From a virus (taxonomy: Duplodnaviria > Caudoviricetes): a DNA stretch of 61,249 nucleotides. Location of the stretch: positions 1 through 61,249 of IMG/VR virus record IMGVR_UViG_3300009419_000019; one strand, given 5' to 3'. Positions 33 to 60,876 of this stretch are shown one piece after another (position 1 is the stretch's first letter; each line of letters opens with the position of its first letter). The position numbers and the translations under genes are program-made. The notes under the pieces are model-generated. The model saw only the letters and a program-made list of their open reading frames with translations. It was not told the DNA's origin and did not search any database.

Positions 33-409
33 CGCCTGGGTTGAACTAACTTTTTGTGGGGCACCCCCATGAGACCCAAGTAACTTCCACGCATCCTGGG
101 TCGATCTCGCAAGCCGCCGAACACGGTTGTGCGGAAGTCACTTCCAACCCGATGATCGTCGGTGGGTGAAAGTTAGATTTCAGGTTAGAACGTGGGGGTG
201 GCCACCTCGAAGTGACGAGATTGACTAGGAGTGTTTATAAGCTCGCGGAGGGGCCTGGGTAGGCCGCGTATCGGTCTTTGGATTTCACGAGATTAAGAAC
301 TGATCTGTGAGATCCTAACAACACTGGCAGTTGAGGGGTCAACCCGATGTTGAGGGGTCAGTGGTCGGCCAAGTCGTCGTCGCCGGTCGAATGTCCGAAA
401 AACCGGGCC

Positions 410-522
410 TGGACAGCATAGGTCTGAATAAGTCGTTTTTTCCCTTTATGTATAGGTAGACTTTTATAAACCTTCTCGTAGCACATAGTCAAAAAAGCCC
501 TTATCCAGACCTATGCTGTCCA
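410..522. repeat. 23-bp inverted repeat flanking an AT-rich spacer; candidate replication origin
   Basis: TGGACAGCATAGGTCTGAATAAG (410-432) vs CTTATCCAGACCTATGCTGTCCA (500-522), one mismatch; just downstream of the primase/helicase gene. Confidence 0.6.
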
Positions 523-638
523 AATGGGGGTAAAAGCAAGGGTAAACCCTTAAAACTTTTCTTTAGACTCGGCGGCGATCCATGGCCGATGTAAAACCGA
601 TTTTTAGGCGTCATGCTGGCAATCTGCGACATAGAACG

Positions 639-659
639 AAAAAACCGCCCGAAGGCGGC
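639..659 (-). terminator. Rho-independent terminator of primase/helicase gene
   Basis: Minus strand CCGCC-TTCG-GGCGG followed by a T run, just after the stop at 675. Confidence 0.8.
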
Positions 660-674
660 TTGTAAAAAGGTTTT

Positions 675-3197
675 TTAGAGACCTTCACACTCTTCTTGGC
701 GTTTTCGCAGCCAATCCCGCACCTTGATCTTGTAGTCAACTTCTCCCTGAGAGCCGACGTATTCGAACATCTGAGGGTCTCGCACATACACCCTGGCCTT
801 GTCAGAACCAGTGATTCGCATGCGTCCGAGAGCCTCATAACCGTCCCGTTCGAGCATGAAATTGAGGGTCTTTCCAGGGGGTATCGCCGCGCCACGGGCA
901 GCAACCGCTTCCATCAGTGAGCCCAACTCGATCAGTTCCCACGACACACCCGGCACATCGTTTTCACGGATGATTTCGTCGAGCACTTGGATGAACTCGG
1001 GCTTCGAACGGGCGATCATCTGGCGACGTGCTTCGGTCTCAGGCGCGTCACCCATAGGGTCAAAGGCATCGGATTGCTCATGGTCGAGCAGCCACGCACG
1101 CAACGCGGGAGCGCACTCTGAGATGGTCTCGTAGAGCTTGGCGTAGTAGTCCCGGTTCTCGGCCTTGAACGCCTTGATGTCGTCGCGCTTTTGCCACCGT
1201 GAGAACAAGATCAGGTAGCGACGGTCGGTGTCGTCCAGGGGGAGAGCGTCTTTGTAGTTGGTGAACAGGAGGTAGTTGGTCGTGTTGATGCAGTTGTAGA
1301 CAGCCTTGCCCTTGGGATGCACCTCGATCACCGTGTTGGTGATGTAGGGCTTGATCCGGTTGATCACCTCGTACTTGTTCTTGTCGTTGATCAGGCGCAC
1401 TTCCTCGACGCACGCAACGCACTGGCCAGCACACCAGTCAGTGAAGTCGTTGTGAAGGATCTGCGCGTTCAGCATGGTCACGTTGCTCACGCCCATGACC
1501 GCACGCAGCATTTCGGCAAAGAACGTCTTGCCGTCACCCTGAACGCCTTGCAACAAGATCGCGTAATTGGCGTGCTTGCCTGGGTTTTGCACCACCCAGG
1601 AGAGCCAGTCCAAAAGCATGGCCTGTTCATCGGGTCGCTCCAACAGGTGCGCGATGTGGGCCTTGACCCGCTCGACGGCACGCTTGTCACGGGGCAGCAT
1701 CTTCTCGGGACGCTCGGGAATCTCGTGCTCTGCGTAGGTGTTGGCAAACACACCATCGGGCTCGTGGAAGATCGGATCACGACCGGGCATGTACCGACGC
1801 CCACCAACCGTATGGATCTTGTAGATGTTCAGTGCCAGTGAAGAAGCATTGGACGACGGTGTTGTGCGCCCTTCCAGTGCGTCCTTCTTGGTCAGAGCAT
1901 TGCGGTCGTACATCGCGTTGAAGCCTTGTTGCGACGTGGCGATCTTGTTGTTCGTGTTGAAGAAGCGGTCATCGCTGGTGTCGTACACCCAATTGACAGC
2001 CCACTTGGGCGTCTTCTCTTGCTTCTTCGGTGCGTAGGCCAAAGCCTTCTTGATCTCAACCAGCGATGTCTTGGTGCCGGTGATCGAGTCACGACGCTCC
2101 TTGGCCACCACGGCAAGCGCAGAACGCGAGAGACCGTCGATTTCGGCCTCACGAACCATCTGCCTTGCCTTCTCCCACGACTGAATATCTTTGGCTTCGA
2201 GGAATGCGTCACGCAACTTGATGGTCAACTCAGCCGTCGTGTTCTCGACAGCTTCCTTGGCCAAGCGCAAGATGTACCGTGCGGTAATGGGTGCCCGCTT
2301 TTTGCCTTGGACGTTGAAATCTTTCCAGCGTCGATCAAGCGCATCACCGTCGTAGTTGTCAGCGGTCTCAGACCACTCATGCCACAACTCATGGCCGGAC
2401 TCATCACCATCGAACTGATGGAACAAGGCCATGCCAACCTGCACCCACGTCTCGTAGTCGTCGGGGTTGGGCACCAGCAGCAAGCGTGAACGCAACTCAT
2501 CTGTGGTGATGTCGATGGGGTCGGTGTCTTCAAGCCAGGGGTTGTCGGCAAGCGTGCCTGCACCGGCTGAGCCAGCAAGACCGCTTCGGGCTTTCTTGAC
2601 GAGCTTCCAGCCTTCCTCTTGCGCGACTTCCTCGAAGTAGGCGATGAACTCTTGCGCCTTTTCTTCTGTCAGCAAGGGCAGCTTGTCAGCCGGTGTGTCC
2701 GTTGGCCCATTGAAGTCAGGCCACAGATAGGGGCGCTTCGTCTCAGGGTGAATGTGGTACGCGACGAACTGTTGGCCATCACCGAGGATCTCGATGCGGT
2801 GCTCCTGACCCCATTCATCGGCGTACTTCGATGATGTGATCTTGCGGAAGGGCTCGTCACAGCGAAAGACGAAAAGACGCTTGGGCGGCATGCCGATGCG
2901 CATCGGTGCATCTGCGATGTTGTCGATCACCCACTGCCCCAGCTTCTTCGATACATCTTCGTCGTACACGTCGATGTCGATGGCCGGTGTGTGCTTGGTG
3001 ATCACGCCCACGCCTGAGTTCTTGTGCCCGTGTTCGAGCCAGTCTTTCAGTTGTGCCTTGGTCGAGCGCGACTTCTGCCATCCGTCAAAGCCTGGGGCCT
3101 TCTTGCCACGTTGAATCGGGACGATGTTGTACCCGTTGTCGATCAACGTCTCACCGCATGCTGCTAGGAAGTCGCCTTGTTGCTTAAATTCACTCAT
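675..3197 (-). CDS. DNA primase/helicase (prim-pol N-terminus, PriCT-2, SF3/D5-like helicase)
   Basis: N-terminal PIQRGKKAP...DIDVYD prim-pol motifs; YETWVQVGMAL..WHEWS PriCT-2; Walker A GVQGDGKT and Walker B VEEV. Confidence 0.9.
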   Translation of the reverse strand: MSEFKQQGDFLAACGETLIDNGYNIVPIQRGKKAPGFDGWQKSRSTKAQLKDWLEHGHKNSGVGVITKHTPAIDIDVYDEDVSKKLGQWVIDNIADAPMRIGMPPKRLFVFRCDEPFRKITSSKYADEWGQEHRIEILGDGQQFVAYHIHPETKRPYLWPDFNGPTDTPADKLPLLTEEKAQEFIAYFEEVAQEEGWKLVKKARSGLAGSAGAGTLADNPWLEDTDPIDITTDELRSRLLLVPNPDDYETWVQVGMALFHQFDGDESGHELWHEWSETADNYDGDALDRRWKDFNVQGKKRAPITARYILRLAKEAVENTTAELTIKLRDAFLEAKDIQSWEKARQMVREAEIDGLSRSALAVVAKERRDSITGTKTSLVEIKKALAYAPKKQEKTPKWAVNWVYDTSDDRFFNTNNKIATSQQGFNAMYDRNALTKKDALEGRTTPSSNASSLALNIYKIHTVGGRRYMPGRDPIFHEPDGVFANTYAEHEIPERPEKMLPRDKRAVERVKAHIAHLLERPDEQAMLLDWLSWVVQNPGKHANYAILLQGVQGDGKTFFAEMLRAVMGVSNVTMLNAQILHNDFTDWCAGQCVACVEEVRLINDKNKYEVINRIKPYITNTVIEVHPKGKAVYNCINTTNYLLFTNYKDALPLDDTDRRYLILFSRWQKRDDIKAFKAENRDYYAKLYETISECAPALRAWLLDHEQSDAFDPMGDAPETEARRQMIARSKPEFIQVLDEIIRENDVPGVSWELIELGSLMEAVAARGAAIPPGKTLNFMLERDGYEALGRMRITGSDKARVYVRDPQMFEYVGSQGEVDYKIKVRDWLRKRQEECEGL

Positions 3198-3481
3198 GCG
3201 GCAACCTTGATCTTCAAAGGGTCAGTGAGGTATTCGGCACGCACGACAGCACGGCCAACGGCTTGCTCGATGGCAATGGCCATGGGCACTGTCAGGTAGC
3301 CGCGACGGATGGCGAAAGAAAGAGATGAATGATCCATCTCAATCTTCGCTGCAAGTGCTCGTACACTCTGCTTCCCGGTCGCCTCAATGGCCGCTCGTGA
3401 GATCAGGTAACGCAAGCGTGCCGTAGCACGGTGTTCATCTTTTTTGTGGGTGTCCACCCACGCTGGGAAACGCACAGCCAT
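3194..3481 (-). CDS. Cro-like HTH transcriptional regulator
   Basis: SVRALAAKIEMDHSSLSFAIRRG HTH-like segment; GGAG RBS before ATG at 3481; position as in Chi-like phages. Confidence 0.6.
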   Translation of the reverse strand: MAVRFPAWVDTHKKDEHRATARLRYLISRAAIEATGKQSVRALAAKIEMDHSSLSFAIRRGYLTVPMAIAIEQAVGRAVVRAEYLTDPLKIKVAA

Positions 3482-4610: not shown

Positions 4611-5930
4611 ATGACGGAACATCGAATCGACTTGAAGCAGCTTGAGAGCATCCGTGACGGATCGGGACACTCGATCTTCGGAGCTTCAGGTTCTTCGATG
4701 TTCTTGAACTGCCCTGGCTCGCTGATCCCCAACCTGCTTGCACCTGACGACGCTGGCGAGGACGCTGCCTACGGGACAGTGGCTCACGCTCTTGGCGAAG
4801 AATGGCGCAAGTCAGGTGTGAAGCCTGTTCACCGTGTGGGCACGAAGCAGTTCGTACCTGCTGGTGAGTGGGGCTTCATGATCGAGATCGACGACGCGAT
4901 GCTCGACTATGTGCAGATGTCCGTTGACTGGTCATCACTTCTCCCCGGAGATCACATAGTCGAGGTTCGAGTGAACTACTCCGACCTCACCCCAATCAAG
5001 AACCAAGGTGGCACCCTGGACTTCGGTGCCATGCGCCACGGTGTCTGTGTCATCCAAGACGAGAAGTACGGCAAGAGCGAAGAAATCCTGGCCGAAGAGA
5101 ACACCCAACTCATGCTGTATGCCTATGGCGTCTACCGTGAGTGGGATTGGCTGTACGGCTTCAAAGAGTTTGTGATCCGCATTTCGCAGCCCCGTCTCAA
5201 CCACTTCGACGAGTGGACGGTGAGCACGGAACGCTTGCTTGAGTTTGCCGCTTGGGCCAAAGAGCGCATGCATCTGGCATGGTCGCCCGACGCGCCTCGC
5301 GTCCCTGGTCACAAGCAATGTAAGTGGTGCAAGGTCAAGTCGTCTTGCGCTGCTGCTGCGAAGTTGGAGAACGATCTGGTGACGCAAGCGTTTGCCGGGA
5401 TCGTTGAGTACGACGAGAGCGATATTGAGCAGTTCAAGTCCGAGTTGGACATTGGCATGCTCACACGCCCGTTGAGCATCATGACCTTGAGCACAGAGCA
5501 GATGGCCACGCTCAAGCAGTACCGCAAGTTCAGTGAGGCGTTCTGGAAGTCACTCGACAAAGAACTCATGCGCCGAGCCATTGTGCTCGACGAGAAGATC
5601 CCTGGGATGAAGCTGGTCGAAGGCCGCTCCTATCGCCAGTTCAAAAGTAAACAGGAGACGATCAAGACCCTCGTTGGCCTTGGTTGCTCCGTCAAAGATG
5701 TTGTGGTCGAGTCCTTGGTCAGCCCAGCCGAGTCGGAGAAGTTACTTCGCAAAGCTGGTCACCGGCACAAGGACATTCCACGACTGCTTGCCGAACTGGT
5801 TGAAAAGCCGCCCGGTAAGCCCACCCTCGTGCCGTTGAGTGATCGACGGAGCGAGATCAAAGACATCACGGCAGACGCTTTCCAAAGTCTTGCCGCCGAT
5901 GAAGACGATGAAACCCTCGAAACCGATTAA
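4611..5930 (+). CDS. DUF2800-family Cas4-like PD-(D/E)xK exonuclease
   Basis: HS..GAS...CPGS, GTVAH, GTLD, DEKYG, NTQLMLYA, QPR and CKWC motifs. Confidence 0.85.
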   Translation: MTEHRIDLKQLESIRDGSGHSIFGASGSSMFLNCPGSLIPNLLAPDDAGEDAAYGTVAHALGEEWRKSGVKPVHRVGTKQFVPAGEWGFMIEIDDAMLDYVQMSVDWSSLLPGDHIVEVRVNYSDLTPIKNQGGTLDFGAMRHGVCVIQDEKYGKSEEILAEENTQLMLYAYGVYREWDWLYGFKEFVIRISQPRLNHFDEWTVSTERLLEFAAWAKERMHLAWSPDAPRVPGHKQCKWCKVKSSCAAAAKLENDLVTQAFAGIVEYDESDIEQFKSELDIGMLTRPLSIMTLSTEQMATLKQYRKFSEAFWKSLDKELMRRAIVLDEKIPGMKLVEGRSYRQFKSKQETIKTLVGLGCSVKDVVVESLVSPAESEKLLRKAGHRHKDIPRLLAELVEKPPGKPTLVPLSDRRSEIKDITADAFQSLAADEDDETLETD

Positions 5931-6961: not shown

Positions 6962-9031
6962 ATGCCTAAGTACGCAACACAACGATCTGAAGCAGTCTTC
7001 GACCTCGAAGTCTTCTACAACTACTTCTCGGTGGCTTTCAAGTGCTGCACAACTGGTCGTTGGCGGCGCTTCGAACTTCTCCCAGGCACGACCCTAGATC
7101 GCAAGGGTGTTGCCAAGGTCTTGCGTAACTTCCGCATCTACGGCTTCAACAGCAATAACTTCGACATGCCGATCCTGATGGCGGCACTCGATGGGTTCCG
7201 CAACGAGCAACTCAAGCTCGTGTGCGACACGATCATTGGCGAGAACCTCCCTGCCTTCAAGACCTATGAGCGGTTCGGCATCACCAAGCCGCCCGTGTTC
7301 ATCGACCATGTTGATCTGATGAACGTCTCGCCTGGGGCTGCGCAGAAGCCAAGCCTCAAGCTCTTGGCCGGTCGCCTACACAGCAAGCACATCATGGAGT
7401 TGCCCGTCGATGTGAACGCGGAACTCAACAACCGCCAGATCGAGAAGATCCGCACGTACCACATCATTGACCTCGACGACACCATTGATCTGAAGAACGA
7501 TCTGAAGTCGCAGATCGAGATCCGTGCGTTCATGTCAGATCAGTACAGCGTCGATCTTCGTTCACGCTCTGATGCGCAAATTGCAGAAGCCGTGATCAAG
7601 GCTGAAGTTGAACGGCTCAGTGGCCAGAAGATCCAGAAGCCACAGGTCGTCTCGGGCAAGTTTCAATACAAAGCTCCCTCGTTCATCGTCTACAAGACGG
7701 AGGTGCTTCAGAAGTTACTTTCGACTGTCTGCGATGCGAAGTTTGTCATCGGCTATGACGGCAAGGTCTATGAGCCTGCTGAGATCGAGACGATGACGAT
7801 CTCCCTGGGCATTCAGAAGTACACCTTCGGCATCGGTGGCCTGCACTCGACAGAGAAGCGGGTTTCATACGTTGCCGATGAGACGTTCTCCTTGCGAGAC
7901 CGTGACGTGACGAGCTACTACCCTCGCACGATTCTGAACACGGGCCTGTTCCCCAAGCAGCTTGGAATGTACTTCCCTCAGGTCTACGAGAGCATCCTTG
8001 TGCGTCGCGTGTCAGCGAAAGACGCCGGCGACAAGAACACCGCTGAGACGCTGAAGATTGTTCTCAACGGGACGTTCGGCAAGCTGGGTCAAAGCACATC
8101 GCTGTTGTATGCACCGAACCTGTTGATTCAGACGACGATCACAGGCCAGCTTGCGATCCTCATGCTCATTGAGCGTCTCGAACTGGCTGGCATCACCGTG
8201 ATCTCAGCCAACACAGACGGCATTGTCAGCAAGGTTCCTAAGCACCTCGAAGGCACGTTCTTCTGGATCTGCCACGATTGGGAAGTTGATACCGGCTACG
8301 GCACTGAGGAAGTTCAGTACACCGCTGTCTACTCGCGGGACGTGAACAACTACCTCGCCTTCTATCAAGAGAAGGACAAGGCCACTGGTGAGATGAAGAC
8401 CAAGGTCAAGCGCAAGGGAGCCTACGGTGAACGTGGCCCAGGCCAAGCCGGCGCTGCTGGTCAGAAGCACAACCCTGACGCTGAAATCTGCTCCCTGGCT
8501 GTCATCGAGTACCTAAAGAACGGTACGCCGATGGAGACCACCATTGAGGACTGCGATGACTTCCGCAAGTTCGTGATCGTGCGTCGCGTCAAGGGTGGCG
8601 CCGTGCTTGGTGAGGAATACATCGGCAAGGTTGTTCGCTGGTATCAAGCCGTGGGCATGGACGACTGTCTGCGCTACGCATCGAACAACAACAAGGTGCC
8701 ATCGTCGCAAGGTGCTAAGCCAGCGATGGTCATGCCTGATGAACTGCCTGATGACATCGACTATCAGTGGTACATCTCAGAGGCATACGCGATCCTCTCC
8801 GACATTGGTGCCAGTGAGGGCGATCCAGCCCTGGCCGGTCGCACTGGTTGGATGCTGGCTCGTGCGCCTGATCAGAAGACCATCCACAAGGTGAAGCTGC
8901 CAACAGGCATAGCCGCATGTTTCAAGGAACTCGCCAACGTGCGAGACAAGTGGGTTGAGTACAGCGTTGTTCCGAACGGCATGCGCTTTTGCTCGAAGTG
9001 TGCAAGAGCCGTTGACGCTGATGAGCTATGA
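6962..9031 (+). CDS. DNA polymerase, family-B-like, with 3'-5' exonuclease
   Basis: Exo motifs FDLEVF and GFNSNNFD; polymerase motifs DVTSYYP, KIVLNGTFGK, NTDG. Confidence 0.9.
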   Translation: MPKYATQRSEAVFDLEVFYNYFSVAFKCCTTGRWRRFELLPGTTLDRKGVAKVLRNFRIYGFNSNNFDMPILMAALDGFRNEQLKLVCDTIIGENLPAFKTYERFGITKPPVFIDHVDLMNVSPGAAQKPSLKLLAGRLHSKHIMELPVDVNAELNNRQIEKIRTYHIIDLDDTIDLKNDLKSQIEIRAFMSDQYSVDLRSRSDAQIAEAVIKAEVERLSGQKIQKPQVVSGKFQYKAPSFIVYKTEVLQKLLSTVCDAKFVIGYDGKVYEPAEIETMTISLGIQKYTFGIGGLHSTEKRVSYVADETFSLRDRDVTSYYPRTILNTGLFPKQLGMYFPQVYESILVRRVSAKDAGDKNTAETLKIVLNGTFGKLGQSTSLLYAPNLLIQTTITGQLAILMLIERLELAGITVISANTDGIVSKVPKHLEGTFFWICHDWEVDTGYGTEEVQYTAVYSRDVNNYLAFYQEKDKATGEMKTKVKRKGAYGERGPGQAGAAGQKHNPDAEICSLAVIEYLKNGTPMETTIEDCDDFRKFVIVRRVKGGAVLGEEYIGKVVRWYQAVGMDDCLRYASNNNKVPSSQGAKPAMVMPDELPDDIDYQWYISEAYAILSDIGASEGDPALAGRTGWMLARAPDQKTIHKVKLPTGIAACFKELANVRDKWVEYSVVPNGMRFCSKCARAVDADEL

Positions 9032-9321
9032 GCAAGCCATTCTTCGAACGCGCAGAGCGCGAACGTGCTGACGTTGAGGAACCCGCAATCAGCTTCGCAC
9101 AGAAGCGCGGTTGGTGGCACACGAAAGTAACTTCTCCAACGCGAGACTCGCTGCCTGACGACTTGTTCGTTCGGGCTGGTGTCTACGTCTGGTGGGAGTT
9201 CAAGGCCCCTGGGAAAGAGCCAACACCGAAGCAGACCAAGCGGCACCGCGACATGCGTGCTCGCGGCATGGACGTTCGTTGGACTGACAACCTCGACACG
9301 TTCAAGGCGCAGATGCAATGA
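9028..9321 (+). CDS. VRR-NUC domain nuclease
   Basis: LPDDLF..EFKAPGKEPTPKQ motif; lies between polymerase and SNF2 helicase. Confidence 0.85.
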   Translation: MSKPFFERAERERADVEEPAISFAQKRGWWHTKVTSPTRDSLPDDLFVRAGVYVWWEFKAPGKEPTPKQTKRHRDMRARGMDVRWTDNLDTFKAQMQ

Positions 9322-10916
9322 AGTTCAACCTCCTTGAGCACATTGCTCTGAAGTTTGCCGATGTCGAGTTCACTCGTGAGCAGATGCACGCGTATCAGCG
9401 CGAGGCTTATGAGTTCTTGAAGAAGAACCCGTACTCTGCGTTGTTCATCGACATGGGCATGGGAAAAAGCGTCACGTCACTCACGCTGATCGTGGATCTT
9501 CTGTTGTCCTTCGAGACAGAGAAGGTGCTTGTGATCGGCCCCTTGAAGGTGGCAACCGACACATGGCCGAACGAGATCCGCAAATGGGCACACACCGCTG
9601 TGCTCAATCACACGTTGATCCGCTGTGAGGACGACAACCCCGAGGTCATTGCTGCGGTGAAGGCCATGCGCCAGCGTGGTCGGCTGCTTGGTTGGTCAAA
9701 GGAAGAGATCAACAAGCGTTGCTTGGAAGTGCAAGCTGACACGAAAGAGAAGATCAAGCGTGCCAAAGCCTTGAGTGGCGCATCTGTTCACATCATCAAC
9801 CGTGAGCAGATCGAATGGCTGGTCAACTTCTACGGTCGCAAGTGGCCATACCGCACCGTCTTCATTGATGAGTCCAGTGCATTCAAGGATCACCGCACGA
9901 ACCGCTTCAAGGCTCTTGCCAAGGTGCGTGCGACACCTGGGCTGATCACGCGCATGCACCTCCTGACTGCTACGCCAGCAGCCGAGACATACGAGCACCT
10001 GTTCGCTCAGATTTTCTTGCTCGACGGTGGCGAACGCTTTGGTCGCCACATCACTCGCTTCCGAAACAATTACTTCAGCTACAACCAGTATTCACGCAAG
10101 TACAAGCTGCGCCCTGGGTGTGAGGAAATCATTCTCGATAAGATCAAAGACATCTGCCTCGTGATGAAGGCCAAGGACTACCTGAACTTGGCTGAGCCTA
10201 CGATTGCACCCCGTCAGGTGACTCTCTCAGACGATCAGATGGTGCTCTACAAGAGCATGGAGGAAGAGGGATACGTCAAGCTACCGGACGGCACTGAGAT
10301 CGACGCGGAGACCGCTGCTGCGCTTTCCGGGAAGTTACTTCAGATGTCGTCGGGGGTGCTCTACGAAACGTATGAGCTTGGCGATTGGGAGACCGAGGAT
10401 GTTCGCAAGGTCAAGCGGGTTCACCACTTGCATGACCACAAGATCGAGATGCTTCGCCAGATCGTCGAAGAATGCCCAGGTGAACCGCTCTTGGTCGGAT
10501 ACCACTTCAAGTCGTCTCTCGACCGTCTGAAGAAAGCATTTCCCAAAGCCGTGGCCATGGACAAAGAAGGCCGCTGCATCAAGGATTGGAATGCTCGCAA
10601 AATCCCCATGCTGTTCATCCATCCCCAATCCGGTGGCCACGGTCTGAACATGCAAAAGGGTGGGCACAACCTGATCTTCTTCGATCTGCCCTGGTCGCTT
10701 GAGCTATACCTGCAACTGATCGGTCGCTTGGCACGTCAAGGTCAGAAGCACCCGGTGTTGGTTCAACCCTTGATCGCTAAGGGTACTCTTGACGAACTGG
10801 TCTTCCGCTCACTCGTGGCTAAGCAGGACGCACAAGAAAAGTTGTTCCGCATGCTGAAGAAGATGATCAAGAAAGCACAGGAGAAAGCAAGTCAAGCATT
10901 GGAAGAGACGCTCTAG
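9318..10916 (+). CDS. SNF2-family DNA helicase
   Basis: DMGMGKS, DESS, LTATP, GHGLNMQ and QLIGRLARQGQ motifs. Confidence 0.9.
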   Translation: MKFNLLEHIALKFADVEFTREQMHAYQREAYEFLKKNPYSALFIDMGMGKSVTSLTLIVDLLLSFETEKVLVIGPLKVATDTWPNEIRKWAHTAVLNHTLIRCEDDNPEVIAAVKAMRQRGRLLGWSKEEINKRCLEVQADTKEKIKRAKALSGASVHIINREQIEWLVNFYGRKWPYRTVFIDESSAFKDHRTNRFKALAKVRATPGLITRMHLLTATPAAETYEHLFAQIFLLDGGERFGRHITRFRNNYFSYNQYSRKYKLRPGCEEIILDKIKDICLVMKAKDYLNLAEPTIAPRQVTLSDDQMVLYKSMEEEGYVKLPDGTEIDAETAAALSGKLLQMSSGVLYETYELGDWETEDVRKVKRVHHLHDHKIEMLRQIVEECPGEPLLVGYHFKSSLDRLKKAFPKAVAMDKEGRCIKDWNARKIPMLFIHPQSGGHGLNMQKGGHNLIFFDLPWSLELYLQLIGRLARQGQKHPVLVQPLIAKGTLDELVFRSLVAKQDAQEKLFRMLKKMIKKAQEKASQALEETL

Positions 10917-10989: not shown

Positions 10990-11670
10990 GTGGGCTCAAC
11001 CCTAGAGTTCCGAGTAGCATTCGTTTCCCGATTGAAGCAAGCGTGTGATGAATCCGCGCTGATTCCACCGCCCCACAAGGGTCGTCAGCAGATGATTGCT
11101 GATCGGTTGGGGGTTGCTCCCGAGGCTGTGAGCAAGTGGTTCAAGGCTGTTGCCATGCCACGGCCCGACAAGATGGAGAACTTGGCCGAGATGCTCGGCG
11201 TCGATCAATCTTGGTTGGCGTTCGGCATCTCCCCTGAGATGGATCGTGGTGAGCGCAAGGCTCACGCCCGTCAGGTGGACGGTGCTGTCTACCTCACCAT
11301 GGGCTTGATTACCCTGGGTGGGGGCCTCGTGGGCATGCCGTCAAAGAATGACCCCAGGAAACACTACGTTGACTTTTACGCAACCATCCGTGGATCGGTG
11401 TACCCGATGCACATTGCGTTGGCGAGAGAAACGTCGAAGGGCACTTACGAGGCATTGCTGCCGAAGGAGTATGCGGATACCCGGTGCCTGACCGTTGTGC
11501 CTGCTCCTGCACACAGGTATCACATCCTGTTCATGCCATTGAACATGGTCGAAGAACACAAGCGTCGCAAGAGCGGGCATGTGCAGATTGGCTTTGGTCG
11601 GATGGACAGCCGGTACATCACCGGCTCCGACGTTTGGCCGCAAATTCGTGACTTTACGGAGTTCGTATGA
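10990..11670 (+). CDS. XRE-family HTH repressor
   Basis: QQMIADRLGVAPEAVSKWF...LAEMLGVDQSWLAFG; adjacent to excisionase-like gene and integrase. Confidence 0.8.
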   Translation: MGSTLEFRVAFVSRLKQACDESALIPPPHKGRQQMIADRLGVAPEAVSKWFKAVAMPRPDKMENLAEMLGVDQSWLAFGISPEMDRGERKAHARQVDGAVYLTMGLITLGGGLVGMPSKNDPRKHYVDFYATIRGSVYPMHIALARETSKGTYEALLPKEYADTRCLTVVPAPAHRYHILFMPLNMVEEHKRRKSGHVQIGFGRMDSRYITGSDVWPQIRDFTEFV

Positions 11671-11879
11671 CCGATGTGCCCTGGGTAGCAGTGAAGGACG
11701 TGTGCCATATGTACGGAGTTACTTTCGAGACTGCCAAGAACAAGATCCACGCGGGCACCTTCGACGTGGACACCTACAAGGTCGGCAAGGTCTTGGTCAT
11801 CGACAGGGAGGTTCACGAAACTTACTTCCGTCTTGCCCGTGAGCGTGGCCTTGCGGCATTGAAATCCACAACGGGTTGA
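11667..11879 (+). CDS. Excisionase-like small DNA-binding protein
   Basis: 70-aa winged-helix-like pattern (VKDVCHMYGV...YKVGKVLVID) next to the integrase. Confidence 0.65.
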   Translation: MTDVPWVAVKDVCHMYGVTFETAKNKIHAGTFDVDTYKVGKVLVIDREVHETYFRLARERGLAALKSTTG

Positions 11880-11990: not shown

Positions 11991-13010
11991 TTACGCCGCC
12001 AACTCCCGAAGTCGCTTCTCCTTCTCGACAAGGCTCGTGGGCTTGAGGTGGGTGTATCTAGCTAAGGTCTTCCAGTTGGTGTGCCCCGAGACCAGACATA
12101 CCTCCTGAATCGCAAACCCAAGCTCGAACAAGCGGCTGATCCCCTCGTGCCGTAGATCGTGCAGCACCACGTCGGGCACCCCAGCCTTGACCGAGGTCTC
12201 GTGGAAGACCCGGCTCATGTAGTTCTTGCACCTGGGGAAGATGCGCTCGTTGACCCTTGGCTGTCGTGCCGCGATCTCGAACGCACCGTTGAGCAGCGGC
12301 ACCGTCTGGTGGTTGCCGAACTTCTTTCTCGGGTGCTTGCGATCCCTGACGATCACCGTCCGGTTCTTCTCGTCGAAGTCACTCCACGTGATGCGAACAA
12401 CCTCGCTGATCCGCATGGCTGACGCAAGGCAGAAGTCCAAGGTGTCAGCGATGGGTTGGAGCGTGTTCGGGCTCAGCTTGCTCTTGATCAGAGTGAGTTC
12501 TTCGTCCGTGACCCGACGATCCCGCTCATTGGCCAGTGCAAGGTAGCCAAGCTCCCACAGACGGTCTCGGCACGTCTTCATGTCCTTCCAGGGGATAGCA
12601 ATGCCCCAATGGCTTTCAGCTTGCCGTAGCACGCCAAAGAGCCGTGCGATGTGCCAGTTGGTCGTTGAGGGTGCTACGTCGTTGCGCTTCAACACCCACT
12701 CCATCAGGCCGCGTCCCTGTAGGTCGCTCATCCTCATGTCGCTGAAGGCTCGCTTGATCGAGGGTATGTCGTGCTTGAGGTGGCTGTCTGCCATCTTGCG
12801 CTTTGGGGCAACCTCGGCAACATACTTGTCAACGAGATCCATGATCTTGATGCGGGGGTTGGTGATCGTCTTCTCTTCAATCTCCTTCTCCGTGTCCCTG
12901 ACCCAATCCTTTGCTTCCTTGTGCGTCTTGAACGTCTCGTACATCGGCTCGTGGCCAACCTTACGGATCATTGCCCTGTACGACGTGCCTCTCTTGGCGA
13001 CTGTGCCCAT
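11991..13010 (-). CDS. int: Tyrosine integrase
   Basis: MRISE, HDLRHEG, SGH and RYTH catalytic motifs; N-terminal arm-binding domain. Confidence 0.93.
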   Translation of the reverse strand: MGTVAKRGTSYRAMIRKVGHEPMYETFKTHKEAKDWVRDTEKEIEEKTITNPRIKIMDLVDKYVAEVAPKRKMADSHLKHDIPSIKRAFSDMRMSDLQGRGLMEWVLKRNDVAPSTTNWHIARLFGVLRQAESHWGIAIPWKDMKTCRDRLWELGYLALANERDRRVTDEELTLIKSKLSPNTLQPIADTLDFCLASAMRISEVVRITWSDFDEKNRTVIVRDRKHPRKKFGNHQTVPLLNGAFEIAARQPRVNERIFPRCKNYMSRVFHETSVKAGVPDVVLHDLRHEGISRLFELGFAIQEVCLVSGHTNWKTLARYTHLKPTSLVEKEKRLRELAA

Positions 13011-13326: not shown

Positions 13327-13345
13327 ATATATTCAGTGAATATAT
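13327..13345. promoter_or_regulatory. 19-bp palindrome ATATATTCAGTGAATATAT, copy 2, overlapping the start codon of the small HTH gene
   Basis: Identical to 14-32; ATG at 13344. Confidence 0.75.
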
Positions 13346-13583: not shown

Positions 13584-14157
13584 CCAACGCAGCCTGGATG
13601 ACGAGAGTCAGATCGCCCTCTACGAAGGGCTGAACCAGTCTCAGCTTGCCGTGGCCTTCGGGATGGACATCCGAACGATCCAACGCAAGATCCACGGTCT
13701 GCACCCCTCGGGTATTCGCAACGGCTCGAAGGTGTGGAAGCTCGCTGATGTAACTCCGTACCTCGTCAAGCCACGAGTGGACATCGAGACCTACATCAAG
13801 AACATGAACCACAACGAGCTACCCAAGCACTTGACCAAGGAGTTTTGGGCAGGGCAGCGGGCTCGTCAGGACTACCTTCTGAAAGAGGGGGACTTGTGGC
13901 CAACGACGCAAGTGGTCGAGAAGGTGAGCGAACTCATGAAGCTCATGTCGATGTCGCTCAAGCTGTTGGCAGACACCGTTGATCGTCAGAGCGAACTCAC
14001 AGAGAAGCAGCGCAAGGTGATCTTGTCCATCGTGGACTCAACTCAGACGGACTTGGTTCGCACTGTGCAGGAGCACTTCTCCAAGGTCGAGCCCAAGCAA
14101 CAACCAAAGGTCGAGTCAGAAGTGACTTTCAATGACGATGAAGACGACTCGCTATAA
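13555..14157 (+). CDS. terS: Terminase small subunit (Nu1/DUF1441-like)
   Basis: N-terminal HTH NQSQLAVAFGMDIRTI, coiled C-terminal half; directly before the large terminase. Confidence 0.8.
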   Translation: MVTPVSTKRNQRSLDDESQIALYEGLNQSQLAVAFGMDIRTIQRKIHGLHPSGIRNGSKVWKLADVTPYLVKPRVDIETYIKNMNHNELPKHLTKEFWAGQRARQDYLLKEGDLWPTTQVVEKVSELMKLMSMSLKLLADTVDRQSELTEKQRKVILSIVDSTQTDLVRTVQEHFSKVEPKQQPKVESEVTFNDDEDDSL

Positions 14158-20958: not shown

Positions 20959-21210
20959 ATGAGCAACCTGATCACCCTTATCCCTCTGAAGTCCATCGTC
21001 GTCGTGCGTGACAACAAGATGGTCGTTCCTCCTGTGGACAAGCCCTTTGGCTTCACTGAGTCCGAAGTGGCCGACGCCGGTCCCGACGCCTTCCGCAAGC
21101 CCGTCAACGAAGCTCCTGCTGAAGCAGAAGAAGTTGCCGAGAAGCCCGTATCCAAGCCAGCCGCCAAGACCGCTGGTAAGGGTGCCAAGAACGCCGACGA
21201 AGGTCTGTGA
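20959..21210 (+). CDS. Hypothetical head-associated protein (gpFI position)
   Basis: GGAG RBS; follows the major capsid gene. Confidence 0.65.
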   Translation: MSNLITLIPLKSIVVVRDNKMVVPPVDKPFGFTESEVADAGPDAFRKPVNEAPAEAEEVAEKPVSKPAAKTAGKGAKNADEGL

Positions 21211-28694: not shown

Positions 28695-29618
28695 ATGATC
28701 TACACACCATTCGAGTTCCCCGTACCTGCACCGCACTCAGCCTCTTTCACCGATGGTGAGAAGGCTGTCTCCGTGGCCACGCCGCTCGCGTCTGCACCGG
28801 CTCGCTCTGAACGCATGATCAGCCGTTGGATCTACCTCGCGCCTGGGTTCTACACGATGCACGGCATCACGAAGACCTCGGGCACTTGGTTGCTCAACAG
28901 CGTGCGTCAGGCAGGCTCTACCCTGGTCGAAGAGAAGCAACTTCTGTTCACCACCCTCGCATCGCAAGGCGTGGTTGACCGGGAGTTCTACGTCAGCCGT
29001 GGTGGTGTCAAGAAGCTCGACATCATCTTGCGCAACATCTCAACGTCTGCCGGTGAGTGCTACGCCGCTTTCAACATCAAGCGCAGTGGGAATCTGATCT
29101 ACGCATCAGACAACGAAGGTTGGGTGGCCAGTGACACCAACAAGGTTCTCACGAGCCAGATGCCCGCCTTGCCCGATTACCGAAAGTCACTTCCGGTTTT
29201 CACGCTCACCCCGAACTGGCAAGGCGGCATCCTCGAAAAGCTGGAATACCTGACGAACGTGTTGCCTAGCAGCACGGACGCTGAGCAACGCCGGATGCTG
29301 CGTGTTCACCCACGGCGTTCGTTCGAGGTGTCGTTCTTGCGTGAGAAGGACGAGCGTGCTCGCCTTGACTCGTTCGTCTCGGGTCATGGGCATGAGCCGT
29401 TCCTTGTGCCCTTGTGGCATGAGGCAGTCCGCTTGCCGTATGGCGATCCAAAGGAAACCGCTGAGATTCCTTTCGATGGCTACAATCTCATCTCAAATGG
29501 CGCACACCTAAGCAACGGCTCTCAGATGTCTTGCGGCTTAGACCTGCTGTTTGACCTGATCTCCGATGGCTCCGTCACCTCTGACGGGACACAACTTTCT
29601 GACGGCTACGAGGATTGA
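28695..29618 (+). CDS. Distal tail structural protein, N-terminal half, fused to a short xDG-repeat tail
   Basis: PNWQGGILEKLEYLT..EQRRMLR.HPRRSFE...VPLWHE pattern of siphovirus distal-tail proteins, ending in SNG/SDG repeats. Confidence 0.65.
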   Translation: MIYTPFEFPVPAPHSASFTDGEKAVSVATPLASAPARSERMISRWIYLAPGFYTMHGITKTSGTWLLNSVRQAGSTLVEEKQLLFTTLASQGVVDREFYVSRGGVKKLDIILRNISTSAGECYAAFNIKRSGNLIYASDNEGWVASDTNKVLTSQMPALPDYRKSLPVFTLTPNWQGGILEKLEYLTNVLPSSTDAEQRRMLRVHPRRSFEVSFLREKDERARLDSFVSGHGHEPFLVPLWHEAVRLPYGDPKETAEIPFDGYNLISNGAHLSNGSQMSCGLDLLFDLISDGSVTSDGTQLSDGYED

Positions 29619-36666: not shown

Positions 36667-37489
36667 ATGGCCACCTCCGACTACACCGTCACCGCTACCT
36701 CGATCCCGTTCTGCCCGAACGCGGCCTTGTCGTCTGCCATTGCCCCACTGACCACGGTCATCCCGATCACGGGCTACCGATCTGCCGGCATTGAGGAAGT
36801 CGTTGCCGGTGAGGCTGCGATGATCAACGACGAGATCGTTCGCATCGAGAGCTTCAGCCCTGTCTCGATCACCGTGGCCCGTGGCTGCGCTGACACGATC
36901 CCCCAGGCGCACGCAGCAGGCTCGACCATCTGGTTCTTCGACGACAGCTTCGGCAATGACGCTCGTGAGTACGCCGGGTCTGAGACCATCGCTGTGAAGT
37001 TGCTTCCGAAAACGGCCAGTGCCCAGGTGCCCATTGCCAACAGCACACCGGCCAATGTGACGTTCAACTTCCGCTTTGCCCGTCCTTACGCACCCGGCAA
37101 GGTCGAGGTCGATGGTGAGCCGTTCACTGCCGTGAGCATCGTTGGCCCTGCCAATCCTGCTTTGAACCTGACCTGGGCGCACCGTGATCGCGTCAGCCAG
37201 TTTGACCAGTTGATCGACCACAGCATGAGCAGCGTCGGCCCCGAGGCTGGCACGACGTATGTTGTGAAGGTCTACAAGGCTGACAACACGCTCGTGCGCA
37301 CCGTCTCAGCCATCACCGGGACATCCTGGGGATTACCCCTTGGCCACGGCGAGAAGTGACTTCGGGATCACGGTGGGTGCCGGTGCTGCGTTGACAGCCG
37401 GCTACCTCACGCTTGAGTCCGTGCGCGACGGCTACGTCTCGTGGCAGAAATACCGGGTTGAGTTCCAAGTCAGTAACGCCGCAAGTTGA
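36667..37489 (+). CDS. Tail tip protein, C-terminal part; frameshifted at the G4 run 37328-37331
   Basis: ARGCADTIP..H and LTWAHRDR; ORF stops at 37359, but the +1 frame continues to the expected LESVRDGYVSWQ C-terminus and TGA at 37489. Confidence 0.75.
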
Positions 37490-41194: not shown

Positions 41195-41229
41195 ACTAAG
41201 TTCCACATCCAATTGAAAGGAAAACCATC

Positions 41230-43257: not shown

Positions 43258-44199
43258 TCACAGAGCTTCGTCGTCTTCAGCCGCAGCAGCCTTGGGCACG
43301 TCACCCAGGATGCTCAGCGTGACCCGCTTGCCGTCCACGGCATCGGCGTGCTCGCGTGGCACGCGAATCAAGAACACCACGTAGTCGTTGTCCTCGTGGT
43401 CTTGGTAGGGGGCATGGAAGTCAGCCACGATCTCGGCGCTGGGCTCTGGTGTGGTTTTGAGCTTCTTCTTGCCACCGTTCAAGGTCTTCTGAGTCACCTT
43501 GCCCTTGCCGGTGCTCTTGGCCACTTCTGCGGCCTCTGTGAGCTTCTTGGCAGCACCCTTGGGATCTTTCTTGATCTCGCTGATGGCCAGCGTCGCAGAG
43601 ACCTTGCCCTGCTCGACGAGCTTGCGCACAGCCGAAGGTGCTGACAGGAGACCCAGGAGGTCTTCAACGTACTTCTTGGTGTAGCCCAACTTGGCCGCGA
43701 TACCCTTCTCGTCTTGGCCAAAGCCCAGCAGACGCTTGCAGACCACAGCGATCTCAATGGGGCTCAAGGGACGACCGGAGTTGCCGGTGACCAGGGCAAC
43801 GGTGAGGTCTTCTTGTGAGGTGCCAGCGGGCTTGACGATCACCGGCAGGGCGACGATCTCGTGGCCCTCTGCGATGGCCAGTCCAGCGGCCTCGTGACGC
43901 GTGTGGCCACCCGTGATGTAGATGACGTTCTGGCCATCTTCCTTGGCCACGTAGCCTTCGAGCGGCTTGTCGCGGTAGAACCCGTTGGCGATGATCGAGT
44001 TCTTGATGTCCTGCACGTGCGCGAGGTACTCGGCGTTGCGCGTGCGGACGTTGAAGCCCTCGATCACACGGATGTTCTCGTAAGGCACCATCCAGAGGTC
44101 AGACGACGATGCGCCTGCCTCCTTCATTGCAGCTTTGACGCTGCCTGGGGCGAGGTTGTCAATCACAAGGTCTGTGGTTGGGGTTGCGGCGGTGCTCAT
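43258..44199 (-). CDS. ParB-like protein (ParB N-terminal domain plus HTH)
   Basis: GFNVR, GGHTRHEA (GxxRxxA), LSPIE, HTH GIAAKLGYTKKYVEDLL. Confidence 0.8.
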   Translation of the reverse strand: MSTAATPTTDLVIDNLAPGSVKAAMKEAGASSSDLWMVPYENIRVIEGFNVRTRNAEYLAHVQDIKNSIIANGFYRDKPLEGYVAKEDGQNVIYITGGHTRHEAAGLAIAEGHEIVALPVIVKPAGTSQEDLTVALVTGNSGRPLSPIEIAVVCKRLLGFGQDEKGIAAKLGYTKKYVEDLLGLLSAPSAVRKLVEQGKVSATLAISEIKKDPKGAAKKLTEAAEVAKSTGKGKVTQKTLNGGKKKLKTTPEPSAEIVADFHAPYQDHEDNDYVVFLIRVPREHADAVDGKRVTLSILGDVPKAAAAEDDEAL

Positions 44200-44231
44200 G
44201 GCGGAAGTTCCTTCTCAGGGTTGATGGCCGA

Positions 44232-46142: not shown

Positions 46143-46216
46143 CTCATCTCTCCTGTTGTGTTGGCGCGATCTTAAATCAGAATCAACCAAATGTGGAAGT
46201 AACTTCCAAAGAAAAT

Positions 46217-47334: not shown

Positions 47335-47514
47335 TCAGCATTGCTCGGGTTCTTTCTGTGGCTTGGGGGTGAACGATGGGCAACTCTCACCCTTGGCTTC
47401 TGGCAAGCAGTACCAGGGGTCATCGACCTCCGGTGGCACGGGCTCACTGCGCTTGCAGGTTGCACACACGGGAGCACCGTTGCCCATGCAGTAGGTGAAG
47501 TGGGGGTTGTTCAT
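47335..47514 (-). CDS. Small Cys-rich protein
   Basis: C..G....CATC.R pattern; ATGA overlap. Confidence 0.55.
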   Translation of the reverse strand: MNNPHFTYCMGNGAPVCATCKRSEPVPPEVDDPWYCLPEAKGESCPSFTPKPQKEPEQC

Positions 47515-48068
47515 GCTGCACCGCCTTGCGCAGCTTTCATCACTGCTTGCACGATGCACACGGCTTGGTCTTCGGTGTTCTCACCGTTGGCGAAGTTGCG
47601 CAGGGCTTCGTCCACCTCTGGCACCTCGGAGATGCGTAGGGCCTCGTCCCAGGTGGGTGCGGCGGGTGCTGCTACTGTGTCACGTGGCTTTTGTTCGGCT
47701 TTAGAGCGAACACGCTCACGTAAACGCGCCTCGATGCACTGGTTCAGTTGTGCGTTGTCTCCGGCTACGCCGCAGTTCCACCCAAACTTTGCGCCAGAAA
47801 TCCATGCGCTGTCGTAAAGGCGGTCGGCAACGTCATCTGCCGATGCCCCCACAGACTGCGCGGGTGCTGGGCGCAGTGCCCACAGGCGGCGCTCGATGAT
47901 CCCGGCGATGGCCTTGGTTCGGCGCTCATCGCCCATCGCATGAATGTCGTCAGAGCCTTCCATGCCGATCCAGCCACTCACCATGCCAGCCACGTACTCG
48001 CACCACTTGGACTGCTCATCAGACACAGGCGCGGCGGGTGCCTCGCGCAGTTGGTTCTCGTTGCTCAT
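47511..48068 (-). CDS. Hypothetical protein (mosaic early-region type)
   Basis: ATGA overlaps at both ends. Confidence 0.65.
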   Translation of the reverse strand: MSNENQLREAPAAPVSDEQSKWCEYVAGMVSGWIGMEGSDDIHAMGDERRTKAIAGIIERRLWALRPAPAQSVGASADDVADRLYDSAWISGAKFGWNCGVAGDNAQLNQCIEARLRERVRSKAEQKPRDTVAAPAAPTWDEALRISEVPEVDEALRNFANGENTEDQAVCIVQAVMKAAQGGAA

Positions 48069-56448: not shown

Positions 56449-56501
56449 ATGTATTCAGTGAATATATCGACGATCATCGTTGTAGATGTACCCTCTGTCA
56501 A
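56449..56501 (-). promoter_or_regulatory. Leftward sigma70-like promoter with copy 3 of the 19-bp palindrome at the expected start site
   Basis: Minus strand TTGACA-N17-GATGAT, then ATATATTCACTGAATACAT (56449-56467). Confidence 0.65.
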
Positions 56502-56888
56502 CACCCTGATTGCATTTTGTCGTCGAAAGTTCCTTCGATGTTTGGAACAGGCCAGGGTCACAAAGTAAGGCATGGCCAGGATTGGGCTTTCAGCCAGGGC
56601 CTTGCGTGGCCGGTCGTTCGATTTCAACGGCTGGCACGTCAGAAAATTTTGGAACGGGCCAGGGTCACAAAGTAAGGAAAGGGTTCGTGGTTGTTGCCGG
56701 GGTTGCGACGGGGGTGGAAGTTACTTCTGAAGCTGGCACGGTGGCGCCCTCTCACGTGCGAGATGTTCGCCTGCTTTTTCTGATCTGTTGCGCACAATCT
56801 AATCGCGTGCGGCTTGATCGTGTGCGGCTTGCCTATATAAGAATGTCGGCAGATGCGGCATGTGTCACACTTGCTTACACTTACCCGC

Positions 56889-56919
56889 TTGTCAGTGTTC
56901 GCATCTGGCATGCTAGAAT
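56889..56919 (+). promoter_or_regulatory. Rightward promoter with extended -10
   Basis: TTGTCA...TGcTAGAAT upstream of the gene at 56969. Confidence 0.55.
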
Positions 56920-56968
56920 CCAATCTAGCCAAGGCATCCCGCCTTGAATCCCTCAGTTAGGACTGAAC

Positions 56969-59671: not shown

Positions 59672-59681
59672 GGGGTAGGCC

Positions 59682-60103: not shown

Positions 60104-60106
60104 ACC

Positions 60107-60286
60107 ATGCGCCCTTTTGAATTCAACAATTGGCACGCATGGGAAGGCACTAGCGGCGTTCTCTTGTCCGACGAATCCGTTAAGAAACTGCGTCAATTCT
60201 CAACGGTCGATGATGCTATTAACTGGCTTTTTATCAATGGCCACAAAGACGCAGCACGCGCATTGAACGCGCACAAGAAAGGGTAA
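60107..60286 (+). CDS. Small hypothetical protein (59 aa)
   Basis: GGAG RBS; translated by hand. Confidence 0.6.
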   Translation: MRPFEFNNWHAWEGTSGVLLSDESVKKLRQFSTVDDAINWLFINGHKDAARALNAHKKG

Positions 60287-60289
60287 ACC

Positions 60290-60637
60290 GTGAACCAACA
60301 CCAAGCATTGAGCGAAGCCGCAAAACACGTGGGTTTCTACGCACAGGGTACAGAATACATTGTGTATTCCCCTTACAAAGACTCAAACCCAAAAGGGGGG
60401 CGCACCGAATTTAAACGGCGGTCATATGCTGCGGCATTGCAGCATGCCGCGTTAAGACGTGCTTGCGTGGCCCTCACATTGTGGGCAGATGCGCACGGGT
60501 TGAGCTATGACGCTGAGACGTGGCTTTGCTGCGAATTCAAGATGCAAGACGCTCAGACCATGCGCAAGCTGAATGCACGTCAAATGCTGAGCATGGGCGC
60601 GGCATACCTCAAGGGGCAAACATGCGCCACGGACTGA
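60290..60637 (+). CDS. Hypothetical protein
   Basis: AAGGG RBS; operon packing. Confidence 0.6.
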   Translation: MNQHQALSEAAKHVGFYAQGTEYIVYSPYKDSNPKGGRTEFKRRSYAAALQHAALRRACVALTLWADAHGLSYDAETWLCCEFKMQDAQTMRKLNARQMLSMGAAYLKGQTCATD

Positions 60638-60855
60638 TGTTGTTTCGTCTTGCCCTTGGTCTGGTCTTGTCAGGCTATGGGCTCACGTGGGGGGCGTGGC
60701 TGTATATCGGCCAGAGCAAACCCGGTGAAGCATTGGCGCATGCTCTCATTTGGGGGCTATTCGGTGCCCTTGTCGCCCCACTGGCAGAGGATGTGGGCGC
60801 CATGGTTGAGCGCCTAGCCAAGCAAAAAGAGGCACGCGACACCGGATCACGTTAG
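60622..60855 (+). CDS. Small protein with two TM segments
   Basis: AAGGGG RBS; two hydrophobic segments; followed by a terminator. Confidence 0.6.
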   Translation: MRHGLMLFRLALGLVLSGYGLTWGAWLYIGQSKPGEALAHALIWGLFGALVAPLAEDVGAMVERLAKQKEARDTGSR

Positions 60856-60876
60856 CCCCTGAAGTTACTTCCAAAC

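Follow-up and report, generated by a model that had tools for sequence, protein, structure and literature searches.

The window analysed here is the genome of a tailed phage, 61,249 bases long and the whole of IMG/VR virus record IMGVR_UViG_3300009419_000019 (G000), whose completeness was estimated at 100% by CheckV. A short palindrome, RAAGTNACTTY, is scattered over this genome, which also carries an orphan gene for a ParB/KorB/Noc-like protein. A preliminary description, made from the DNA letters, had listed twelve exact and three near copies of the palindrome and had proposed that they serve as parS-like loading sites for this ParB. Comparative evidence suggests that the palindromes are probably docking sites for the phage's own orphan ParB and not part of a partition system. 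The sites and the proposed reader are listed below; G001, G004 and G005 are close relatives of G000.

77..87, near-consensus site CAAGTAACTTC with the core AAGTNACTT intact, intergenic, left end
134..144, site GAAGTCACTTC, intergenic, left end
5738..5748, site GAAGTTACTTC, in the exonuclease gene, read as AAG TTA CTT; orthologous site in G001, decayed in G004 and G005
7711..7721, site GAAGTTACTTT, in the DNA polymerase gene, read as AAG TTA CTT
9124..9134, site AAAGTAACTTC, in the small endonuclease gene 9028-9321
10331..10341, site GAAGTTACTTC, in the helicase gene, read as AAG TTA CTT
11715..11725, one-mismatch copy GGAGTTACTTT
12375..12385, one-mismatch copy GAAGTCACTCC
14119..14129, site GAAGTGACTTT, at the end of terS, 3 bases ahead of the terL start codon
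21459..21469, site GAAGTTACTTT, in gene 21207-21560; orthologous site in G001 with another central base, decayed in G004 and G005
29183..29193, site AAAGTCACTTC, in tail gene 28695-29618
37353..37363, site GAAGTGACTTC, where the tail genes border on the lysis genes, overlapping the stop codon of 36667-37359 (tail gene)
43258..44199, minus strand, orphan ParB/KorB/Noc-like gene, 313 amino acids, recognition helix at about residues 175-185; proposed reader
44204..44214, one-mismatch copy GAAGTTCCTTC, with the ParB start codon 5 bases downstream; perhaps no more than a ribosome-binding site
46196..46206, site GAAGTAACTTC, intergenic, inside the leftward early operon
56717..56727, site GAAGTTACTTC, close to the head of the leftward early operon, either non-coding or in an unsupported open reading frame (ORF)
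60861..60871, site GAAGTTACTTC, intergenic, right end, just left of iteron-like arrays

Every one of the twelve exact matches reported earlier (134 to 60861) was found at its position, and the near matches at 77, 11715 and 12375 are real. In dinucleotide shuffles of G000, the mean number of exact copies was 0.17 and the largest 2, and none of 100 shuffles reached 12. The core AAGTNACTT is present in 13 copies, position 77 included, and GAAGTNACTTC with up to one mismatch gave 21 matches against 1.47 expected. Among gapped palindromes in G000 with half-sites of 4-5 bases and gaps of 0-6, AAGT-N1-ACTT ranked first in enrichment. Further palindromes that came out as enriched (CAAG-N5-CTTG, GTTGC-N5-GCAAC, TCGA-N2/N5-TCGA and CGCG-type words) were rejected, since they look like codon-period artefacts within genes. 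The flanks of the palindrome have weak extra symmetry, with a purine at -6, a pyrimidine at +6 and C at -7, and the full site is therefore about 13-15 bp. A 5-bp stem with a one-base loop cannot fold, and thus the palindrome is a signal in double-stranded DNA.

Eight of the 13 core copies lie wholly within ORFs, which agrees with the number given in the preliminary description, one (37353) lies across a stop codon and four are intergenic. One of the eight sits in ORF 56639-56932, which is without family support; the intergenic sites number four or five of 13, against a non-coding fraction of 11-16%. When codons were shuffled synonymously within genes, the control proposed earlier, the genic copies averaged 0.33 with a maximum of 3, and none of 1000 shuffles reached the eight found in G000, so the enrichment stands. 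The codon TTA makes up 14 of the 1459 leucine codons in G000, and three of those 14 fall within the palindrome, confirming the rare-codon reading of AAG TTA CTT at three sites. Selection at the DNA level keeps the palindrome, in part by way of rare synonymous codons within genes.

The same selection can be followed in G001, whose TerL is 80% identical to that of G000. This genome has five copies, three of them orthologous to the sites at 5738, 10331 and 21459. The DNA of the two phages is about 70% identical around the shared sites, and the central base differs at one. The Lys-Leu-Leu stretch of the helicase is encoded as AAG TTA CTT in G000, G001 and phage BcepNazgul and by common codons in the other 10 aligned genomes.

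The genes of G000 were mapped by PHROG scans (83 ORFs) and Pfam scans (53 ORFs), and their coordinates come from an ORF heuristic checked against family matches rather than from a gene caller. The main genes and blocks, assigned from PHROG matches, are the following.

675-3197, leftward, primase-polymerase
Rightward replication block: exonuclease, gp2.5-like single-stranded DNA-binding protein, family A polymerase, small endonuclease (9028-9321) and helicase
10990-11670, CI-like regulator
11991-13010, integrase
13.4 to 37.4 kb, lambda-like packaging, head and tail block, with the lysis genes next
About 42.4 to 56.9 kb, leftward early block, containing the ParB-like gene 43258-44199 and an RdgC-like gene

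Sites occur in every module of G000, spread over 61 kb and mostly within genes. Copies close to both genome ends, noticed before, were confirmed at 77, 134 and 60861.

The ParB-like protein matched phrog_1033 (1.7e-59). Its helix-turn-helix is central, as the Pfam family HTH_ParB (PF17762) matched residues 145-205 (E 7.5e-7, 29.7 bits against a cut-off of 22.6). Thermus Spo0J (1vz0) aligned by sequence over residues 88-234 (2.7e-6), and a weak Pfam KorB match fell below the cut-off. An AlphaFold model built on 19 family members had a block predicted local distance difference test score (pLDDT) of 80-95 over residues 21-240 and of 30-67 over the C-terminal residues 241-313, a tail conserved in close relatives only. 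The modelled fold is that of the ParB family: the best match among solved structures was the KorB-KorA-DNA complex 8qa9 (Foldseek E 2.5e-9, template modelling score 0.68 on the target), ParB, Noc and Spo0J came next, and sulfiredoxin matched the N-terminal part, which indicates an N-terminal fold of the ParB/sulfiredoxin type.

The earlier assignment of gene 43258-44199 as ParB-like without a ParA partner is borne out. No AAA_31 or CbiA match to a ParA-type ATPase was found in the six frames of G000 (E <= 0.01), and no ParA was found among the 83 ORFs scanned against PHROGs. The exact sites nearest to parB are about 2 kb and 6 kb away and do not form the clustered centromere of ParABS. This is not a plasmid-type ParABS partition system, since no ParA was found, the sites are unclustered and an integrase is present.

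Related words were found in other phages, whose hosts are Beta- and Alphaproteobacteria. They share the scaffold AAxT-N-AxTT, in which x varies by lineage.

x = G: G000, G001, G009, G491, BcepNazgul, Erythrobacter phage R16L, Burkholderia proviruses and HM795
x = C: Burkholderia phage AH2, G008, G010, G011 and G509
x = A: Sphingomonas phage Carli, Persinger, Mica and G490

The copies in BcepNazgul (18) and in Erythrobacter phage R16L (25) are all of the form GAAGTNACTTC, against about 0.03 expected. The word GAAACTNAGTTTC was found five times in AH2, eight times in G008, six times in G010 and three times in G011, where about 0.3 or fewer are expected. Carli has no GAAGTNACTTC; it has 16 copies of AAATNATTT, 13 of them as the full GGAAATNATTTCC, and 39 of GAAA-N3-TTTC. 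Persinger and Mica have five and four copies of AAATNATTT, respectively, and the Agrobacterium phages 7-7-1 and Milano show weak enrichment only. The sites are evenly spaced in Carli (coefficient of variation 0.41, largest gap 3 kb, P < 1e-4) and in R16L (P = 0.005). Between 30 and 58% of the sites in relatives lie outside called genes. A site lies within 2-400 bp of a record end in G000, BcepNazgul, R16L, G491, G509, Carli and G009, and in four of these sites are near both ends.

The word co-occurs with this ParB family. ParB was the sole G000 gene present in all six motif-bearing genomes compared, and neither tblastn nor all-against-all BLAST clustering revealed another gene cluster that separates motif-bearing from motif-less genomes. 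The word is missing from G002 and Salmonella phage SLP-22, neither of which gave a tblastn match to the G000 ParB. A panel selected by terminase comprised 36 previously unseen records of at least 45 kb, which were searched for ParB; nine had a strong match, one (G480) a weak match and 26 none. Seven of the nine strong records, the weak one and 19 of the 26 negatives were read, those over 60 kb to 60 kb and one only to 40 kb; the two strong records left out looked like copies of two that were read. Three of the seven ParB-bearing genomes have one hugely enriched class, with 18 copies of GAAGTNACTTC, 22 of GGAACTNAGTTCC (24 in the shorter form) and nine of GAAATNATTTC, respectively. In the 20 rows that lack a strong ParB (19 negative, one weak), no class reaches five copies, the maximum being four A-class copies, in G493 and in G500. 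The contrast of 3/7 with 0/20 is significant (Fisher p = 0.012). With G480, G002 and SLP-22 added to the 19 negative panel rows, 22 ParB-less relatives were read in total, and the word was absent from all of them.

A similar association was found in Burkholderia prophages. Among 66 provirus loci fetched through ParB homology (ParB about 33% identical), 65 have one to four copies in 11-21 kb, with the consensus CAAAGTNACTTTG. Fifty proviruses were selected by portal protein, not by ParB; all 45 with a strong ParB (E <= 1e-64) have four to eight copies, and a divergent clade of three, in which ParB is weak or missing, has none. In five Burkholderia/Trinickia genomes of 7-8.2 Mb, the word is present in 12-19 copies each versus 32-53 for the reversed word, and 5, 6, 8, 9 and at least 7 copies lie in the 21-32 kb surrounding the best phrog_1033 ParB match. 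A second prophage in one of the host genomes (portal at G019:C2:1189190) has no site listed nearby. The palindrome is phage-specific and rare in host chromosomes.

The class of the site covaries with the ParB tree and with residues of the recognition helix, which is suggestive of ParB as the reader. A quick maximum-likelihood tree built from 26 ParBs requires 10 class changes, compared with 13.9 when labels were shuffled, and none of 200 shuffles was as low; kin share labels in any case. All 10 class G genomes have Asp at residue 180. At residue 179, all five class C genomes (about three independent lineages) and none of the 10 of class G have Asn or Ser. These residue rules had already been stated when G491 and G509 were scored, and both fit. 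The ParB of G004 and G005 has Asn180 and Ser203, unlike all class G proteins, and Ala186, as in all class C proteins and several from genomes without the word.

A second palindrome, ATATTCAGTGAATAT, has three copies in G000 (one with one mismatch) against 0.02 expected.

16-30, at the left end
13329-13343, just upstream of terS
56451-56465, at the head of the leftward early operon

The element, lengthened to about 19 bp, is also present in three copies in G004 and in three in G005. A different regulator probably uses it as an operator or promoter element. Because ATATTCAGTGAATAT heads three transcription units and is kept in G004 and G005, ordinary promoter control seems to be served separately.

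In the proposed mechanism, dimers of the ParB/KorB/Noc type would dock on the 13 copies of (R)RAAGT-N-ACTTY(Y), each half-site being read by one helix-turn-helix. The whole phage chromosome, not single promoters, would be marked as the substrate of the protein, because the sites are spread across the chromosome and cluster at its ends. From these nucleation sites the protein might further spread along or bridge the DNA, a step held with less confidence than the docking; it is suggested because sites occur in every module, lie mostly within genes, are evenly spaced in the relatives richer in sites and lie near the ends, and promoter control appears separate. During infection, such a coating may organise replicating DNA, shield it from host nucleases or silencers, time expression, regulate the phage DNA globally or mark it for packaging. 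The role of ParB as the reader, its spreading and the purpose of the coating are what we infer.

Several observations weigh against docking by ParB, and the main one is the loss of sites in relatives that kept the protein, which speaks against a simple ParB reader. G004 and G005 are the closest relatives of G000 (TerL 83%, most proteins 70-85% identical) and have one copy of the palindrome each despite an intact ParB of 308-309 amino acids that is 69-73% identical. Five orthologous places in these genomes hold decayed remnants with one- to three-base changes, in forms identical in both (for example GAAGTGATTTC, GAAGTCAGTTC and GAAGTCACGTT), and the helicase has the common codons AAG CTG CTC at the orthologous site. 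Since the decayed forms are shared and G001 has orthologous sites, the sites were ancestral to the clade and the constraint was lost in the ancestor of G004 and G005. No replacement word was found in these two genomes. TTCA-N-TGAA was considered as one and rejected; it is part of the different 15-19-bp operator-like palindrome, which is present in G000 too.

Other ParB-bearing genomes point the same way. No such word was found in G007, ST79, RG-2014, Mano, PCA1, G489, G501 (two copies), G505 and G506, nor in the ParB-bearing fragments G006 and G012, and about half of the ParB-bearing genomes are without it. ParB is therefore not sufficient, and it looks necessary but not sufficient for the word. 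Most genomes outside the TerL and portal panels were selected by ParB homology, which biases the co-occurrence. Sites without ParB were met in three places. Two portal-selected proviruses, G034 (72% complete, seven copies) and G057 (95% complete, four copies), gave no ParB match, which may be due to truncated records; by the layout of a complete relative, the ParB of G057 would lie beyond the contig end. The third is a Burkholderia island (G020:C3, about 2.556-2.573 Mb; L145:16000-20000 and L146:1-12700) that gave no ParB match but contains four CAAAGTNACTTTG sites, two being adjacent; a ParB-bearing prophage is present in the same genome. The genes of the island encode a tyrosine integrase, a PriCT-2/Toprim/DUF927 primase, a resolvase and small proteins of no assigned family. 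It may be a satellite copying the signal of its helper prophage, and its sites without a ParB of its own hint that the signal works in trans. The co-occurrence of motif and parB, which the preliminary description had offered as a check, is thus challenged only weakly from the side of motifs without parB, by two incomplete records and one satellite-like island; on the converse side, the two closest relatives retain ParB and have lost the sites.

The protein itself also raises objections. Pfam ParBc gave no match at E <= 0.01. Canonical ParB proteins bind cytidine triphosphate (CTP) through boxes of the GERRxRA and ENLQRE types. In the G000 protein these positions read GGHTRHEA and TGNSGR and lack the canonical arginine-rich pattern, and only G98 and R101 are invariant in this region among the 19 family members. 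The ParB link put forward earlier is retained for its comparative co-occurrence; CTP-dependent loading and sliding are not supported by the sequence and are not claimed. According to a survey, the ParB fold can bind ATP or GTP too (PMC12704722). The correspondence between protein and word is also imperfect. Class G needs at least three changes on the ParB tree, recognition helices differ widely among the x = G genomes, and no consistent residue was found for the x = A class. A rule by which Asp180 would specify G and Asn180 or Gln180 would specify A was rejected, as G490 (class A) has Asp-Asp like class G. The evenness of site spacing in G000 is not significant (coefficient of variation 0.72, P = 0.19).

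Three of these facts would be explained if another phage DNA-binding protein, such as a replication or packaging protein or a small regulator that evolves fast, read the word and ParB merely travelled along: the kept ParB of G004 and G005, the roughly half of ParB-bearing genomes without the word, and the satellite-like island. We consider this unlikely, as no other gene was exclusive to motif-bearing genomes by tblastn or BLAST clustering and a separate 15-bp palindrome already stands at the heads of transcription units. The individual candidates also failed. The CI-like regulator (10990-11670) and the integrase are missing in G001, which retains sites. Gene 47511-48068, the sole G000 gene present in G001 but not in G004 or G005, has no match to a DNA-binding family and is missing in other motif-bearing genomes.

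Selection of the word by a host factor, namely a nucleoid protein, Chi-like nuclease control or a defence or modification system, with phages gaining or losing it as they change hosts, appears very unlikely. It would account for the scatter of the word on the ParB tree, for sites that decayed in one lineage with no visible gene loss and for the word in a satellite-like island of the same host. In host chromosomes, however, the word is rarer than its reversed control and concentrated in one prophage, and a second prophage of that host has no site listed near it. Phages of Burkholderia and of the alphaproteobacterium Erythrobacter have the 11-mer GAAGTNACTTC in identical form, and sister phages use one-base variants, which better fits a private reader. 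That the word is the target of a DNA methyltransferase, a restriction-like enzyme or a nickase is hardly credible: the compact, odd-spaced palindrome is typical of type II recognition sites and AH2 encodes a DNA methyltransferase, but no methyltransferase or restriction family was found among the 83 ORFs scanned with PHROGs or the 53 with Pfam, nuclease targets are normally avoided and not enriched 70-fold, and a palindromic nick site would yield double-strand breaks.

Some further features of G000 and its relatives were recorded. Two adjoining tandem arrays at 60980-61072 (17 bp x 5.4) and 61047-61129 (25 bp x 3.3) are iteron-like. When the genome ends are joined, these arrays lie beside the primase gene, and three palindrome sites (60861, 77 and 134) flank them; the arrays and flanking sites may be a replication origin. 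The closest named relatives of G000 are Casjensviridae, namely Burkholderia phage AH2 and a Salmonella Jacunavirus. The segment 10990-13010 (CI-like regulator, a small ORF and the integrase) is missing in the three closest relatives G001, G004 and G005, and G007, which is more distant, has counterparts of its genes at 54-71% identity; the segment looks like a lysogeny module acquired through exchange. After the lysis genes, 39575-42561 holds two large ORFs of 539 amino acids (weak polysaccharide deacetylase match) and 443 amino acids (no match), which are common to G004 and G005 only and look like accessory cargo. A host search of genome contigs with the TerL and ParB patterns of G000 gave no match, the capsid protein gave matches of just 33-35% identity in five of 401 Burkholderiales genomes, and a single-protein ParB scan of viral contigs gave no match. 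Intergenic palindromes of the AACAACA-N3-TGTTGTT type were found in AH2 (L014, 5481, 13514, 21688 and 44038), in L015 (4563 and 4600) and also in G009, two of them adjoining a Cro gene. AACA-N6-TGTT has eight copies in AH2 and 10 in G009 and is a separate operator set. Among the ParB-less relatives, G497 has seven copies of TCAAC-N5-GTTGA (0.02 expected) and G477 five of ACAAG-N7-CTTGT (0.03 expected).

Docking by an orphan ParB would resemble several known systems in part; arrangements of this kind are familiar from plasmids, with little work on them in phages. KorB of RK2 (IncP-1) has a ParA partner, IncC. It is likewise a ParB-family protein with a short palindrome, the OB operator, scattered over a mobile genome of about 60 kb and with action at a distance, but it differs in its demonstrated CTPase clamp, its locking partner KorA and the position of its sites upstream of promoters (PMC11790492). 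In G000, ParA was not found, the CTP boxes are changed and most sites are inside tailed-phage genes; a KorA-like partner was not sought. Noc of Bacillus subtilis is a partner-less ParB paralogue with its own palindrome, the Noc-binding site, at many chromosomal positions, but it is chromosomal, membrane-tethering and CTP-binding and controls cell division (10.1101/2022.02.28.481274). For the G000 ParB, no evidence of a membrane helix or a division role was found. The phage-plasmid N15 has a few dispersed SopB centromere palindromes among its phage genes; SopA is present and N15 is kept as a plasmid. The scattered ParB-type palindromes are alike, whereas the system described here has no ParA, an integrase is present in G000, relatives may be lytic, and 13 to 39 sites were counted. 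The integrase was not found in several relatives. The system differs from those of KorB, Noc and N15 in belonging to a tailed phage, in having no ParA, in having sites in coding sequence and in its altered nucleotide pocket.

The stoperators of cluster A mycobacteriophages are dozens of copies of one short word across the phage genome, many inside genes; they are asymmetric, orientation-biased and bound by the immunity repressor. The G000 word, in contrast, is a palindrome, and the CI-like regulator was excluded as its reader. BisD of ICEclc (PMC12409273) and VirB of Shigella (PMC10770331) are ParB-fold proteins that load at sites and control distant expression with no role in segregation. They differ from the G000 system in having few sites near their target genes and in binding CTP, while here the sites are genome-wide and the nucleotide pocket is altered. 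Prophages commonly carry orphan ParB-fold proteins, whose roles a recent survey leaves open (PMC12704722). In the literature, supplements aside, no genome-wide site system was found described for a phage ParB, and the portions available, including those of PMC12185513, do not describe this word in BcepNazgul, AH2 or Erythrobacter phages.

A wider reading is possible but rather doubtful. An orphan ParB would barcode the whole viral chromosome, by means of a private palindrome placed even within coding sequence, in at least two unrelated phage groups, the Casjensviridae-like siphoviruses and the lambda-like Burkholderia prophages, and would coat or gather the DNA as a self-versus-host mark that could serve protection, compaction or packaging. 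The classes (G, C and A) would switch among sister phages, much like immunity or incompatibility groups, the system would be droppable, and satellites would copy it so that they are handled as phage DNA.

Within phage genes, as the palindrome indicates, codon preference can be overridden by selection at the DNA level, which is relevant to recoding and phage genome engineering. If the record ends are physical ends, the end-proximal sites would matter for packaging or end protection. The question can be tested directly in BcepNazgul, Erythrobacter phage R16L and Sphingomonas phage Carli, which are in culture and have 18-39 sites. Docking on these palindromes, if true, would give the class of orphan phage ParB proteins a concrete substrate and would provide a set of natural specificity variants, with residues that are candidate determinants.

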